Positions 4,969 through 22,677 of a DNA stretch of 27,914 nt are shown piece after piece. A program made the position numbers and the translations under genes. The number at the start of each line of letters is the position of its first letter. The first letter of the stretch is position 1. The stretch is from positions 1-27,914 of the IMG/VR virus record IMGVR_UViG_3300002307_000184; one strand, 5' to 3'. The notes under the pieces are model-generated. The model had not been told where the DNA came from. It ran no database searches and was given only the letters and a program-made list of their open reading frames with translations. This DNA comes from a virus (Duplodnaviria; Caudoviricetes).

Positions 4969-5055
4969 TTTGGTTTCCTTTTAGGGTTTCAAGCGGAAAG
5001 CGCTTGCGCCTGGCCGCCGCAAGAGCGCGCGGCGGCCAATCGTAAGAGCTCTAGC
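4969..5055 (-). repeat. Repeat B, copy 2 (structured leader plus RBS)
   Basis: 87 bp; matches 5618-5707 with 2 substitutions and a 3-bp indel. Confidence 0.95.
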
Positions 5056-5068
5056 GGGCGAGATTGGC

Positions 5069-5617: not shown

Positions 5618-5707
5618 TTTGGTTTCCTTTTAGGGTTTCAAGCGGAAAGCGCTTGCGCATGGCCGCCGCCGCAAGTGCGCGCGGCGGCCAATCGTAAGAG
5701 CTCTAGC
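5618..5707 (-). repeat. Repeat B, copy 1
   Basis: 90 bp; matches 4969-5055; begins at the TAG of the 5703-5924 gene. Confidence 0.95.
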
Positions 5708-7389: not shown

Positions 7390-7496
7390 CGCCGAGCGCC
7401 TCGACGCCGAGCGCCTCGACGCCGAGCGCCTCGACGCCGAGCGCCTCGACGCCGAGCGCCTCGACGCCGAGCGCCTCGACGCCGAGCGCCTCGGCG
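7390..7496. repeat. 15-bp tandem repeat CGCCGAGCGCCTCGA x7
   Basis: Six identical units plus a seventh ending in G, which forms the perfect hairpin CGCCGAG-CGC-CTCGGCG. Confidence 0.95.
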
Positions 7497-17386: not shown

Positions 17387-18310
17387 ATGGCTGCAATTTC
17401 CAGAGCTCAGCTCCTCCACGAGCTGCTTCCCGGCCTCAACGCCCTGTTCGGCATGGAATACGCGCGCTACGAGATGGAGTACGCGGACCTCTACACCGAG
17501 CACTCGTCCGAACGTTCGTTCGAAGAAGATCAGAAGGTCACCGGCTTTGCGACTGCTCCGCAGAAGCAGGAAGGTGCCGCGACCTACTTCGACACGGCGC
17601 AGGAAGGCTACACCACCCGGTACACGATGCTCACCTACTCGATGGGCTTCTCGCTGACCCAGGAAGCCTTCGAAGACAACCTCTACGACTCGCTGTCGGC
17701 CCGCTATGTTCGCGAAATGGCCCGCTCCATGGCCAACACCAAGAACATCAACGCCGCCAACGTCATCAACAACGGCTTCACGGCCCTGGCGTCCGGTGGT
17801 TACGGCGTCGGCGACGGCCAGCCGCTGTTCTCGGCCTCGCACCCGCAGGTTGCGGGCCCGGTGATCTCGAACATCTCTTCGACCGCCGTCGATCTGAACG
17901 AAACCTCCGTCAAGGCGGCGACCATCCAGATCGCCAAGTGGACGGACGACCGCGGTAAGCTGATCAACGCCCGCGTGCGCAAGATGCTCGTGCCGGTCGA
18001 CAACCAGTATGTCGCGATGGAGACGCTCGAGACTCAGCTCGAAGTCGGCACCGCGAACAACACGATCAACTCGGTTCGCACCTCGGCGGCAGTACCGGAA
18101 GGGTATGTGGTGAACCACTTCCTCACCGACCCGACCTTCTGGGGCCTGACGACAGACGTCCCCGAAGGTTTCAAGTATTTCAACCGTATCCCCATCAGTG
18201 ACGATTCTGACGGGGATTTTGACACCGGTAACCTGAGATGGAAGACGCGCGAGCGTTATGCCTTCGGCGTGTCGGACTATTTGGCGATGTGGGCGTCGCA
18301 AGGTACCTGA
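17387..18310 (+). CDS. Major capsid protein (Mu gpT-like, HK97 fold)
   Basis: AISRAQLLHELLPGLNALFG N-terminus, GDGQPLFSASHP, DFDTGNLRWKTRERYAFG; AAGGAG RBS; terminator follows. Confidence 0.9.
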   Translation: MAAISRAQLLHELLPGLNALFGMEYARYEMEYADLYTEHSSERSFEEDQKVTGFATAPQKQEGAATYFDTAQEGYTTRYTMLTYSMGFSLTQEAFEDNLYDSLSARYVREMARSMANTKNINAANVINNGFTALASGGYGVGDGQPLFSASHPQVAGPVISNISSTAVDLNETSVKAATIQIAKWTDDRGKLINARVRKMLVPVDNQYVAMETLETQLEVGTANNTINSVRTSAAVPEGYVVNHFLTDPTFWGLTTDVPEGFKYFNRIPISDDSDGDFDTGNLRWKTRERYAFGVSDYLAMWASQGT

Positions 18311-18338
18311 AGTCTTTGAAATACCTACGCTTTTTGAG

Positions 18339-18368
18339 AGGCCGCCCGCAAGGCGGCCTTTCTGTTTT
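18339..18368 (+). terminator. Rho-independent terminator after the MCP
   Basis: AGGCCGCC-CGCAA-GGCGGCCT followed by TTCTGTTTT. Confidence 0.85.
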
Positions 18369-18407
18369 CACCGGCGCCGCCGCGTAGCACCCGTGTCAAC
18401 AAACCCC

Positions 18408-18436
18408 TTGTGTGAAGGAAACAAAAGGTGTATAAG
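18408..18436 (+). promoter_or_regulatory. Candidate promoter for the endonuclease gene
   Basis: TTGTGT-N17-TATAAG, followed by an AAGGAG RBS. Confidence 0.55.
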
Positions 18437-18468
18437 GTTCCGGTATACGTAAAACCAAGGAGCCGACT

Positions 18469-19326
18469 ATGCCTATCTGCCCAGGATGCCAGAAAGAGAA
18501 GCCGATCAAAGCCAAAGGGCTTTGCAACGCCTGCTACGTCCAACTTAACCGACGTGGCACGTTAGAACGCGAGCGCCAGCCGCGCGGCATGTGTACTGTG
18601 CCCGGCTGCGACAAGAAGGCCCACGGTCGTGGCCTTTGCGACATGCACCTTCGCCGGATGCGCGTGTCCGGCTCCTTTGACGATCCTCGCGCCGACAACA
18701 TCAATTTGATGACCAACCAGAAGCTCTACGCCCAGTGGTCCGAGTACCGGCGCAAAGATGGCTATCCGATCGTGCCGGAATGGAAAGATGATTTTCCAAC
18801 CTTCATGGCTGCCGTCGGTGAGCGCCCCTCGTTCAAGCACCGGCTGTACCGGATCGACAAAAGCCTACCGATGGGGCCGGGCAACTTCGAGTGGCGTGAG
18901 CGTTTCGTGAGCCGCCGTTCTGACGAGACCGACGGGGAGTATAACAAGCGACATCGGCAGGCACGACGGGTCGCCACCGGTATTGGGCTATGGAATAGCG
19001 ATCTGAAACGGGCCCACGGCATCACGCTTGTGCAGTTAAAAGCGATGGCAGAGGCACAAGATCATAAATGTGCAATCTGCGGCAAACCTGAAACTGACAT
19101 GCGAAACGGCATCGTGCAGCATCTAGCAGTGGATCACAGCCATAAGACTGGAAAGAACCGCGAGTTGTGTTGTGCCTCACATAACAAGGGGATCGGATTC
19201 TTTCAGGAAGACATGGTTACCATGGTAAAAGCGATCCTCTACCTGCACAAGCACGCTGAGGACAAAACCGAGCTGGGGCGTGCCATAGCGTACCTTGATG
19301 CACACAAGAACGACTACCCGGCTTGA
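18469..19326 (+). CDS. Free-standing endonuclease VII-family nuclease with N-terminal zinc fingers (probable homing endonuclease)
   Basis: CxxC...GLCxxC and CTVPGC...GLCDMH fingers; C-terminal GIT...Q..KCAICG...LAVDHSHKTGKNRELCCASHNKGIG. Confidence 0.85.
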   Translation: MPICPGCQKEKPIKAKGLCNACYVQLNRRGTLERERQPRGMCTVPGCDKKAHGRGLCDMHLRRMRVSGSFDDPRADNINLMTNQKLYAQWSEYRRKDGYPIVPEWKDDFPTFMAAVGERPSFKHRLYRIDKSLPMGPGNFEWRERFVSRRSDETDGEYNKRHRQARRVATGIGLWNSDLKRAHGITLVQLKAMAEAQDHKCAICGKPETDMRNGIVQHLAVDHSHKTGKNRELCCASHNKGIGFFQEDMVTMVKAILYLHKHAEDKTELGRAIAYLDAHKNDYPA

Positions 19327-19352
19327 CGCCAGTCACCCACCAGCCGTAACCT
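19323..19352 (+). promoter_or_regulatory. Candidate promoter for a small RNA
   Basis: TTGACG-N18-TAACCT; predicted start near 19359. Confidence 0.5.
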
Positions 19353-19358
19353 CTCACC

Positions 19359-19438
19359 ACCTGAGCCAAGCAGTTTCCTCCTCCCTCTGCCGCGCATCAG
19401 GCAAACTTCAAGGCCCTCGCAAGGGGGCCTTTCTTTTT
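19359..19438 (+). ncRNA. Candidate sRNA with CCUCCUCCC anti-SD loop (cuckoo/ar14-like)
   Basis: Hairpin CCTGA-GC-GCAG[TTTCCTCCTCCCT]CTGC-GC-TCAGG followed by a terminator hairpin, with a promoter just upstream. Confidence 0.6.
19410..19438 (+). terminator. Rho-independent terminator
   Basis: AAGGCCCTC-GCAA-GGGGGCCTT followed by TCTTTTT. Confidence 0.85.
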
Positions 19439-19537
19439 GTCCACGACCAGCGTACTCATAGCTGTCTGCACGATCCTGCGGGCCGCTCCTGGCTCGTGGC
19501 TACTCCGGCTGGGATGTGCGCAAAGGAGACGATGGCG

Positions 19538-20506
19538 ATGGCCACGACCAATTTTTCTAACGGGCTGTCGAGCTACGGCATCCCTGTATACGGCACTCAG
19601 GCGCCTTTCACCGGCGGGCCCCCCACCGGCAACGTCTGGTTCGTCAACACCTCGACCGGCATCGACAGCCTTAGCGCTGGCGGCGGCAACTCCCCCAGCG
19701 CCCCGCTGAAGTCGCTGTCCTACGCGATCACCGTCGCGACGGCGAACAACGGCGACATCATCTACATCATGCCTGGTTCGACGGTCACCATCTCGGACGC
19801 GACCAGCACCGCTTTCAGCAAGGCCGGCCTCACCATCGTCGGTCTCGGCACCGGCTCGAGCCGCCCGCTGTTCAACTACACCACGGCCAATACGGCGACG
19901 ATCCCGGTCAGCGCCAACAACGTCGTCGTGCAGAACATCCGGCACGCCGGAAATTTCCTGTCGATCGCGGCGGCCTACACCGTCGCCAGCGCGCTGCACT
20001 TCACCTGCGACAACTGCCTGTTCACCGACGCCTCGAGCGTGCTCAACTTCCTGAACATCATCAAATCGACCGGCGCGGCGAACACCGCCGACGGCCTGAC
20101 CATGACCAACAACACCTGGCGCGGTTTCGGCACCACCTCGGTCAACTCGTTCATCCTCAGCGCCAACGACATCGATCGCCCGATCTGGTTCAACAACACT
20201 GTCATCCTCGCCCGTACGGCGACGGCGCCGGCGCTGGCGACCATCACGGCGGGCGTGCTGACCAATCTGCAGTGCATGGGCAACAACACCAGTACCCAGC
20301 AGACCGCCACCACCACGGGCGCGCTGATCGGCGTCACCGGCACTACCGGCACGGGCCTCATCGGCTACAATTTCTGCGCCACCCTGCAGTCGACCGCGGC
20401 GAGCGACCTGCTCGTCACCGCTGGCCACAAGTTCGGTTTCGTGCAGAACTTCACGGCGGGCGCGGCCGACAAGTCCGGTATCCTCGTGCCGGCGGCCTTC
20501 AGCTAA
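19538..20506 (+). CDS. Virion structural protein with predicted beta-helix (head fibre/spike-like)
   Basis: AAGGAG RBS; Thr/Asn/Gly/Ala-rich; NVWFVN...PLKSLSYAI...GDIIYIMPG is a typical beta-helix cap. Alternative start 19532. Confidence 0.7.
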   Translation: MATTNFSNGLSSYGIPVYGTQAPFTGGPPTGNVWFVNTSTGIDSLSAGGGNSPSAPLKSLSYAITVATANNGDIIYIMPGSTVTISDATSTAFSKAGLTIVGLGTGSSRPLFNYTTANTATIPVSANNVVVQNIRHAGNFLSIAAAYTVASALHFTCDNCLFTDASSVLNFLNIIKSTGAANTADGLTMTNNTWRGFGTTSVNSFILSANDIDRPIWFNNTVILARTATAPALATITAGVLTNLQCMGNNTSTQQTATTTGALIGVTGTTGTGLIGYNFCATLQSTAASDLLVTAGHKFGFVQNFTAGAADKSGILVPAAFS

Positions 20507-21433: not shown

Positions 21434-21455
21434 CCGACTTGGAGGAGTAGCCTGA

Positions 21456-21860
21456 ATGGCTATCACCACGACTTCGCAGCTGATCTATGACGGGCCTTAC
21501 GAGGCCAAGATCCTGTTCACCGGGACCAGCGATGGTTCCGGTGAAGTGACCAACGCGCCGCTGGTCGTCGCCGAGGCGCTCAGTCCGCTTGGGCCAGGGC
21601 AGAATTGCGGCCGTGTGCGCGTCCAGCGTGTCACCGGCAATACCAGCCGCGGCAACGTCCAGCTGCTATGGGACGCCGAGACGCCGCTGAAGTTCGCCGA
21701 TCTTGCCGGCCCCGGCATCGACATGGATTTTCGCAGCATTACTGCACTTCGGCCGCCCGCGACGCTGCTTTCGGCGACGGGTAGTATCCTCTACTCGACT
21801 TCCGGGTTCACAGCGGGCTCGAGCTTCACGATCGAACTCGACGTCCGCAAGACGGTATAG
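21456..21860 (+). CDS. Putative virion structural protein
   Basis: 134 aa, GGAGGAG RBS. Confidence 0.75.
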   Translation: MAITTTSQLIYDGPYEAKILFTGTSDGSGEVTNAPLVVAEALSPLGPGQNCGRVRVQRVTGNTSRGNVQLLWDAETPLKFADLAGPGIDMDFRSITALRPPATLLSATGSILYSTSGFTAGSSFTIELDVRKTV

Positions 21861-21927: not shown

Positions 21928-22677
21928 ATCACTCTGTCCGGTACCGCGGTCTTCAACCTCGATCTCACTGAAATCATCGAAGAGGCGTTTGAGCGCTGCG
22001 GCATCGAGGTCCGTACCGGCTACGAAATGCGGTCGGCGCGGCGCAGCCTGTCGATCATGATGGCCGAATGGGCGAACCGCGGCGTGAATTTGTGGACGGT
22101 GGAGGAGCGCACCCAGCTGCTCACCTATGGCGTGGGCCAGTACACGCTTGGCACCGACGTGGTCGACACGATCGAGCAGATGGTGCAGATCCCGCCTGGC
22201 ACGGCGGGTAGCTCGGGCCCGACCCGCTACGACCTGAAGCGCGTCAGCGTCTCGACGCACGCCACGCGCACCAATCCTAGCATCACCGGCCGGCCGGTAG
22301 AAGTCTGGTTTGACCGCCAGCAAGCGGCACCGGTGGCCAATATCTGGCCGCTGCCCGGTGACGGCGGGCCGTACACGATGGTCTACTGGGTTTTGCGCCG
22401 GATCGACGACCCGGGGGCCTTCACGAACAACATGGACGTGCCGTTCCGCTTCCTGCCGGCGTTAATCGCCGGGCTCGCCTACTACCTCGCCGTCAAGGTG
22501 CTGACAGCCGATCGCGCCGACACCCGGTGGGCCGTGATGTTTCAGGAACAACGCATTATCCGGCTGCACGACGACTATGAAGCAACGTTCCTCGCCGCTG
22601 CCCAGGAGGACAGGGAAAAGGCCACACTTAGCCTCGTTCCCCGCGGCAGCGCGTATCGTATCGGCCGTGGCGGCTAA
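21928..22677 (+). CDS. Putative head-tail adaptor/connector protein; apparent ATC start
   Basis: The open frame extends 33 codons upstream of ATG 22027 (ITLSGTAVFNLDLTEIIEEAFERCG...ARRSL...EWANRGVNLWT); AGGAGG lies 5 nt before the ATC; in-frame TAG at 21916. Confidence 0.75.
   Translation: MTLSGTAVFNLDLTEIIEEAFERCGIEVRTGYEMRSARRSLSIMMAEWANRGVNLWTVEERTQLLTYGVGQYTLGTDVVDTIEQMVQIPPGTAGSSGPTRYDLKRVSVSTHATRTNPSITGRPVEVWFDRQQAAPVANIWPLPGDGGPYTMVYWVLRRIDDPGAFTNNMDVPFRFLPALIAGLAYYLAVKVLTADRADTRWAVMFQEQRIIRLHDDYEATFLAAAQEDREKATLSLVPRGSAYRIGRGG

Follow-up and report, generated by a model that had tools for sequence, protein, structure and literature searches.

A conserved anti-Shine-Dalgarno RNA unit, predicted downstream of the capsid gene in a clade of phages

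Downstream of the capsid gene of this virus, a hairpin whose loop is complementary to Shine-Dalgarno sequences is followed by an intrinsic terminator. This raises the question whether the phage encodes a small RNA of its own and, if so, from which family it descends and which mRNAs it would repress. The window, i.e. the whole stretch of DNA analysed (27,914 nucleotides), is the 27.9 kb virus record, which is about 45% complete. Terminase, portal, GroES, capsid (17387-18310) and adaptor-region genes lie on its plus strand and small genes on its minus strand. The capsid protein shares 46-56% identity with its counterparts in MinM2, Pelagibacter phages HTVC023P/027P and Roseobacter phages CRP-901/902, and 32% with that of Caulobacter phage RW. 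The features discussed below are collected in Table 1.

Table 1 Features of the capsid-to-beta-helix region, all on the plus strand.
Feature	Position	Strand	Basis or remark
Major capsid protein, HTVC023P/CRP-901/MinM2-like	17387..18310	+	PHROG 371, Pfam PF25209/PF10124; landmark 5' of the sRNA unit
Terminator-like hairpin 3' of capsid gene	18336..18362	+	Terminator scan
Free-standing HNH/endonuclease VII gene	18469..19326	+	Between capsid terminator and sRNA unit
Predicted sigma70-type promoter, TTGACG-N18-TAACCT	19323..19352	+	Sequence and conservation; under scan threshold
Predicted 80-nt sRNA: hairpin, ACUUCA linker, terminator	19359..19438	+	Fold, model R1, partial suhB match
Anti-Shine-Dalgarno loop UUUCCUCCUCCCU, predicted seed	19374..19386	+	Unpaired probability 1.0 for the core
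Intrinsic terminator, GCAA loop and U-tract	19410..19438	+	Terminator scan; helix 98.9% paired in 23 copies
GCGTAC box, likely -10 of a second promoter	19450..19455	+	Next transcript starting near 19465
Three-way-junction leader, about 60 nt	19468..19528	+	Model R2; separable from the sRNA
Right-handed beta-helix protein	19538..20506	+	Atlas beta-helix/pectate-lyase-like viral clusters

The slot 3' of the capsid terminator (18310-19326 in the window, and its counterparts in relatives) is an insertion hot spot, occupied by HNH/endonuclease VII genes of various kinds, by a remnant in L001, by additional genes in L029/L184, or left empty. The HNH gene itself is variable among relatives: it is absent from L003, L013 and L169 and lies downstream of the RNA unit in L006. 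For the beta-helix protein, searches of Pfam and PHROG gave no match; from its position, which is that of the cement or minor capsid genes of cultured relatives, a similar role may be supposed.

An earlier note, made from the letters of this DNA, had predicted a promoter with a start at about 19359, a hairpin at this start and a GCAA-loop terminator, together a unit of about 80 nt, and each of these parts was found in its place. The -35 hexamer TTGACG (19323-19328) overlaps the TGA stop codon of the HNH gene, and the -10 hexamer TAACCT (19347-19352) follows after an 18-nt spacer, with A19359 as predicted start. Folding of 19359-19438 gave -29.8 kcal/mol (z -3.2; none of 200 shuffles was as good) and confirmed a seed hairpin (19360-19401) and a terminator hairpin (19410-19431) with its GCAA loop and U-tract. 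The promoter call rests on conservation, because the site scores under the threshold of the promoter scan and TAACCT shares three of six letters with TATAAT. The 13-mer UUUCCUCCUCCCU is unique within the window even if two mismatches are allowed, and one such match arises in 33 of 100 shuffles, which is not unusual by chance; conservation in relatives is therefore the case against chance.

Capsid searches yielded 42, 80 and 79 loci in overlapping sets, and a quick maximum-likelihood tree of 57 capsid rows gave a clade of 39 rows (SH-aLRT 100) beside 18 outgroup rows. By our own reading of the loci, the unit is intact in 29 of the 39 clade rows (window included), degenerate in 5 and missing from 5; in the 3-5 kb next to the capsid gene it is absent from all 18 rows of the outgroup, where the best match (20.1 bits) is a bare terminator. 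Since ten clade rows have lost or degraded it, the unit must be dispensable. A covariance model, R1, was trained on 20 copies and gave 64.7 bits for the window copy, itself a training member; held-out distinct copies gave 58 (L178), 55 (L267), 46 (L170) and 44 bits (L324). Bare terminators reach about 30 bits with R1, so that weaker matches were judged by eye.

The earlier note had made its proposal depend on conservation of the loop in related phages, and the loop is indeed kept downstream of their capsid genes, while the stems vary with compensation. Among 20 copies, the loop 9-mer is 86% identical and the stem arms are 33% identical. When stem arms were swapped between the 20 loop-form copies, the own arms beat every swapped arm in 11 and all but one or two in a further five; the test failed in four, two of which had been mis-anchored by the script. 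In a model-fitted alignment of 23 copies, two-sided changes occur at all six pairs of the seed stem, and its covariation is 0.376, compared with 0.127+/-0.021 after shuffling (0 of 500 as high) and at most 0.113 after sliding. Only 72.7% of the seed-stem cells in this alignment are paired. It was fitted to the structure, 19 of its 23 rows are training members and the controls do not fully remove relatedness.

In 23 of 32 copies the seed is preceded by TTGAC at a distance of 30-100 nt, as opposed to 4.5% of background windows, although two of the 23 sites (at 92 and 100 nt) are possibly unrelated. Of 22 such promoters, 11 have an xAxxxT hexamer after a spacer of 16-19, compared with 13 of 108 other TTGAC sites. 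The motif persists with different neighbours on its 5' side, be it the HNH gene, no gene (L003) or another gene (L029), and in L006 a TTGAC-led unit precedes the HNH gene. A promoter upstream of the unit is therefore likely to be real. Ten of the 29 intact copies (our tally) have no clear TTGAC, and for some of these the 3' end of an upstream mRNA may be the only form in which they occur. By folding energy, the plus strand is the better one in no more than 7 of 32 copies; the strand was assigned by promoter and U-tract. At the level of sequence comparison we could show that loop, linker and terminator are conserved clade-wide, that the stems are compensated and that the predicted unit is independent of its flanking genes. 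Accordingly, the phage-encoded anti-Shine-Dalgarno RNA of the earlier note stands as a putative small-RNA unit that is conserved and has a promoter-like site and a terminator of its own. A BLASTn search of cultured phages with the unit gave only three chance matches (E about 7), and Rfam scans at gathering thresholds gave no match in 9, 16 and 17 loci. A strict pattern scan of viral contigs returned two matches, one a known locus and one unrelated, and a second scan returned 14 strand-matches with a terminator in 118 loci, mostly on unrelated contigs.

From which family does the unit descend? Its length of about 80 nt, its CCUCCCU anti-Shine-Dalgarno seed, its ACUU linker, its GGCC-stem terminator and its U-tail resemble the alpha-r8/suhB RNAs, among them MmgR (Sinorhizobium meliloti), SisA-D (Caulobacter crescentus) and SuhB (Sphingopyxis). 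Alpha-r8 RNAs are described in PMC12559287 as carrying a single-stranded 10-mer, UUUCCUCCCU, downstream of a weak hairpin and followed by a terminator. In the window, a rho-independent terminator does follow the ACUU linker, but the exact single-stranded 10-mer was not found there: a CCU is inserted, and the seed, reading UUUCCUCCUCCCU, lies in the 13-nt loop of a hairpin with a hypervariable stem. The unit also differs in being phage-borne and 3' of a capsid gene, whereas alpha-r8 adjoins the FGase gene. On Rfam's suhB model (RF00519, cut-off 41) the window gives 22.2 bits, a score this low because the seed sits in a hairpin loop; the match is restricted to the 3' half, and the ACUU-AGGCCC terminator module is common to both. 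Host suhB copies give 58-68 bits. At the same genomic position, the L003 copy has the alpha-r8 layout and nearly the exact 10-mer, and it matches along RF00519 with 36.1 bits, again under the cut-off of 41; L042 and L031 are likewise single-stranded forms with this layout.

The earlier note had placed the RNA with the cuckoo/ar14 family (alpha-r14/NfeR1, CcsR/RSs0680), and here we come to a different assignment. Cuckoo RNAs are portrayed in PMC4615179 as two to four adjacent CCUCCUCCC hairpins whose stems vary with compensation. The window shares the CCUCCUCCC motif in a hairpin loop (19374-19386) and the hypervariable, compensating stem, but it has one seed hairpin and a terminator instead of two to four motif hairpins, and its 3' module is suhB-like. 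The ar14 model (RF02344) did not match the window, its cut-off of 58.8 was not reached by any of five records tested, and the best relative, L001, gave 31.8 bits. The 3' half and the L003 copy point to alpha-r8/suhB instead. A third layout is that of AbcR/alpha-r15, in which a 5' anti-Shine-Dalgarno hairpin loop is joined to a suhB-like 3' module according to PMC3346310 (see also PMC7143759 for the comparison). Two-seed forms in the clade (L030, L013, L033) resemble it by eye; the alpha-r15 model (RF02345) matched none of five records at E<=1, and the window has no second seed, unlike alpha-r15/AbcR with two anti-Shine-Dalgarno modules in three stem-loops. By the tests run, the unit is a member of none of the three families. 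It would act like anti-Shine-Dalgarno RNAs and likely descends from alpha-r8. Within the clade, one and the same genomic position carries layouts like those of alpha-r8, cuckoo and AbcR RNAs, an observation of relevance to the kinship of these sRNA families.

Similar units were sought beyond the clade. Among five cultured outgroup genomes, R1 gave 31.3 bits at the end of gp038 in Caulobacter phage RW; the two other matches look like bare terminators. The RW unit (MK929790.1:15977-16068) is unannotated and consists of TTGACA-N17-TAGCCT, a single-stranded UCCCUCCCU and a terminator. It gives 28.4 bits with suhB RF00519 and is identical in KcrB, RLK and GB2A, but it could simply be the 3' end of gp038. 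Five further IMG/VR records searched with R1 gave nothing. In partial scans of IMG/VR, a promoter and CCUCCCU were followed by a terminator at 8 of 120 loci, whereas a one-letter control gave 0 of 121; the eight include a clade member and two near-duplicates, and collection-wide totals are uncertain as 8 and 4 of the 64 parts were scanned. Units of this build were also seen on other viral contigs (L373, L391, L397, L409, L431, L459, L053, L058, L103, L106), with no match to window proteins nearby; L397 resembles SorX/suhB and L431 resembles ar14.

Several lines bear on the host. GcrA-like matches were found in four of four relatives, three over the cut-off and two covering the C-terminal part only, in a search whose control also matched in Sulfolobus. 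No tyrosine integrase was found in five records, three of them complete. The GcrA-like genes of the relatives and the integrase result together argue that the host is likely alphaproteobacterial. Relatives of the capsid protein occur in Caulobacter, Roseobacter and Pelagibacter phages and in Asticcacaulis and Hyphomicrobium MAG bins, where the contigs are possibly mis-binned phage DNA. Among 121 genomes of the class of the Asticcacaulis bin, R1 matched 12, mostly terminators and a few with C-rich seeds. On the G018 chromosome, L347:1498-1588 shows a one-loop CCCCCCUCCCU hairpin with terminator after an aminotransferase gene (z -5.6); among 17 genomes from its genus, one has this look-alike, which is therefore not established as a host family.

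With a probability of roughly 55%, we regard the conserved promoter-hairpin-terminator cassette as the gene of a free sRNA of about 80 nt, derived from host alpha-r8/suhB RNAs, that blocks GGAGG-type ribosome-binding sites of the host. Transcription would start from TTGACG by host sigma70, Hfq would bind at the U-tail and the ACUU linker, and the CCUCCUCCCU loop would pair with GGAGG-type ribosome-binding sites of host mRNAs, thereby blocking translation. The mRNAs repressed would be of the SisA/SuhB/MmgR kind, i.e. those of TonB-dependent receptors and carbon-storage genes, and the phage would gain redirected resources or lowered receptor levels. For this group, SisA is reported to repress a TonB-receptor mRNA via the same 10-mer, with compensatory mutants, and MmgR to limit PHB (both PMC12559287); the account of SuhB in 10.64898/2025.12.09.693200 has it repress phbB and a TonB-dependent receptor together with Hfq.

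Alternatively, the RNA could tune GGAGG-led genes of the phage itself, either the gene at 21456 or the head-tail adaptor gene with its AGGAGG and AUC/AUU start, which we consider quite unlikely. The phage's own ribosome-binding sites are mostly AAGGA or GGAGA and pair weakly with the seed. The earlier note had argued that the early genes would escape pairing; the seed pairs at a mean of -6.4 kcal/mol with 17 minus-strand starts and of -6.3 kcal/mol with 27 plus-strand starts (hand-picked, several 1-3 nt off and one gene entered twice), so this argument does not discriminate. AAGGAA..CC sites precede 7 of 17 minus-strand genes in our selection. GGAGGAG at 21440, which the note had named as a candidate target, is the best partner of the seed among the ribosome-binding sites tested (-13.3), but no homolog of the 21456 gene behind it was found among the clade loci, not even in L001 and L169, which extend past the site. 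For the adaptor site, pairing with the phage's own seed comes to -16.8 (window) and -27.5 (L001), and GGAGG with an AUY start stands before the adaptor gene in 10 of 20 clade rows; nevertheless, several carriers have no GGAGG there, and own pairs of RNA and adaptor site rank like swapped ones (mean rank 0.475 in 21 phages, two seeds being mis-anchored), so that co-evolution with this site was discarded. The gcrA gene was dismissed as a target as well, its ribosome-binding sites not being consistently complementary in four relatives. At the capsid ribosome-binding site, GGAGG stands in none of 28 rows with an intact or degenerate unit, in none of 4 non-carriers and in 1 of 19 outgroup rows, so that its avoidance there is uninformative. 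Since no conserved phage target emerged from the pairing, gcrA, capsid and adaptor tests, and by analogy with SisA, SuhB and MmgR, host mRNAs would be the default target by elimination.

It is also conceivable, but unlikely, that hairpin and terminator merely end or stabilise the HNH mRNA or a capsid read-through mRNA in cis and that no free regulator arises. The ten intact copies without a clear TTGAC, the overlap of the window's -35 with the HNH stop codon and a terminator that might be conserved for its use as a promoter would all fit. However, a terminator needs no invariant, single-stranded anti-Shine-Dalgarno loop on freely changing stems, and TTGAC persists behind unrelated upstream genes or none. 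Moreover, an origin in a 3' UTR is compatible with action in trans: SorX, which has a similar module, is of 3'-UTR origin. About as unlikely is a decoy that mimics host alpha-r8 RNAs and soaks up a CrfA-like sponge or Hfq instead of pairing with mRNAs. CrfA is described in PMC12559287 as binding the alpha-r8 10-mer UUUCCUCCCU and destabilising SisA, and the phage seed contains UUUCCUCC and UCCUCCCU. Yet many seeds differ from the exact 10-mer (CCUCCUCCC; CCUUUCUCC in L002) and remain anti-Shine-Dalgarno-like, and the net outcome on host mRNAs would resemble that of the free host-directed repressor. A role as leader or attenuator of the beta-helix gene is very unlikely: the unit usually lies directly 5' of this gene, but with a terminator between them, and the gene is preceded by a conserved promoter-like box and leader of its own. 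In L006, the HNH gene stands between unit and leader. The leader occurs without an intact unit in L023, L034 and L323, and L001, L002, L178, L267 and L031 keep the unit without an R2 match. Most improbable is that the loop is the reverse complement of a strong Shine-Dalgarno sequence (GGAGGAGG) for a minus-strand peptide (ORF 19217-19369), or that a minus-strand RNA with a GGA loop is made. A TTG does lie 7 nt after the minus-strand Shine-Dalgarno sequence in the window, and the plus strand is not favoured by folding; however, only 4 of 32 copies have a suitably spaced start codon, and promoter and U-tract both indicate the plus strand.

The leader between terminator and beta-helix gene is a second conserved RNA element. 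In 24 of 28 copies, a box of the type G[GC]..TA and the terminator arm are separated by a near-fixed distance of 22-24 nt; the loose box pattern matched all 28 copies and had no background control. In the window (19427-19455) and in relatives, the terminator 3' arm and U-tract keep a fixed distance to a GCGTA/GCCTA box. This spacing suggests that terminators may double as promoters in the clade, the sRNA terminator then serving as the -35 region of the next promoter. Model R2 found 30 matches to the leader in 80 sources (e.g. L012:7143-7216 and L008:2362-2436). Its three helices are 92-98% paired (94% of cells overall), and 7 of the 10 nested pairs show changes on both sides; RNAalifold supported two of the helices and paired the third differently, and the window copy alone does not adopt the three-way fold (z -0.18). 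The CUCC loop (19503-19506) can pair with the GGAG Shine-Dalgarno sequence (19525-19528) of the beta-helix gene. Pairing of CUCC with GGAG is possible in 91% of cells, but as evidence this is weak because both are mostly invariant. As the leader segregates independently of the sRNA, reading the sRNA unit as a leader or attenuator falls away. Rfam gave no match for 19468-19528, and the leader may be a candidate translational switch or protein-binding operator. The Mu-gpT-DE element sits downstream of Mu-like gpT genes; its model (RF03012) was tried for the leader and set aside, with no match in the window and one weak, unrelated match in five records. Another leader type follows the terminator in place of the three-way junction in L001:6200-6300, L002, L178, L267, L004 and L279, with a complementary pair, CTGCAA...TTTGCAG or CTGCC...GGCAG, before the next gene.

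The conserved phage RNA unit is probably real and would be a new form of the alphaproteobacterial anti-Shine-Dalgarno sRNAs. Full-text literature searches, with subscription papers and supplements of motif screens outside their range, retrieved no report of a phage-borne alpha-r8 or cuckoo RNA. Few phage base-pairing RNAs have known host targets, and those met in our literature searches belong to temperate enterobacterial phages. PreS (LPR1) of lambda, presented in 10.1101/2024.10.31.621285 as a base-pairing RNA that acts with Hfq on the host network, and the prophage-encoded anti-sRNAs AsxR and AgvB, so named in PMC12559287, likewise are phage RNAs that intervene with Hfq in host RNA networks. 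They activate a target or sponge an sRNA, whereas the unit described here resembles a captured anti-Shine-Dalgarno repressor of a host family, in phages in which no tyrosine integrase was found. If this is true, a clade-wide copy of a host regulator would show a phage using the Hfq and anti-Shine-Dalgarno language of its host, by which receptors would be repressed, carbon redirected or the SisA-CrfA feast/famine switch upset. It is tempting to speculate, although we hold it to be doubtful, that lytic phages of Alphaproteobacteria repeatedly captured host alpha-r8 and rebuilt its seed into a sponge-escaping loop that silences receptor and carbon-storage mRNAs, that anti-Shine-Dalgarno RNAs are a general takeover tool and that the adjacent leader is a further new translational switch. 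The comparable unit of Caulobacter phage RW, which is in culture, opens the way to a direct test of the proposed phage copy of a host regulator: for its host CB15, SisA-D, CrfA, Hfq RIL-seq and reporters all exist.

Some further observations on the window should be mentioned. The adaptor-like gene (21928-22677, plus strand) has an apparent ATC start behind AGGAGG; ATC or ATT starts recur in 12 of 20 clade rows checked and in none of the outgroup rows (a few mis-anchored), and starts of this kind behind AGGAGG suggest a deliberately weak initiation of this gene. On the minus strand, intergenic hairpin cassettes are repeated at about 4990-5060 and 5630-5700 before AAGGAAACC-led genes. A CCCCTCCCGCTCCTACGGGGGCGGGG element is repeated at 630-660 and 1080-1105, a tandem array of a 17-nt repeat occupies 7390-7485, and an ORF with Gly-rich repeats covers the left end (1-170).
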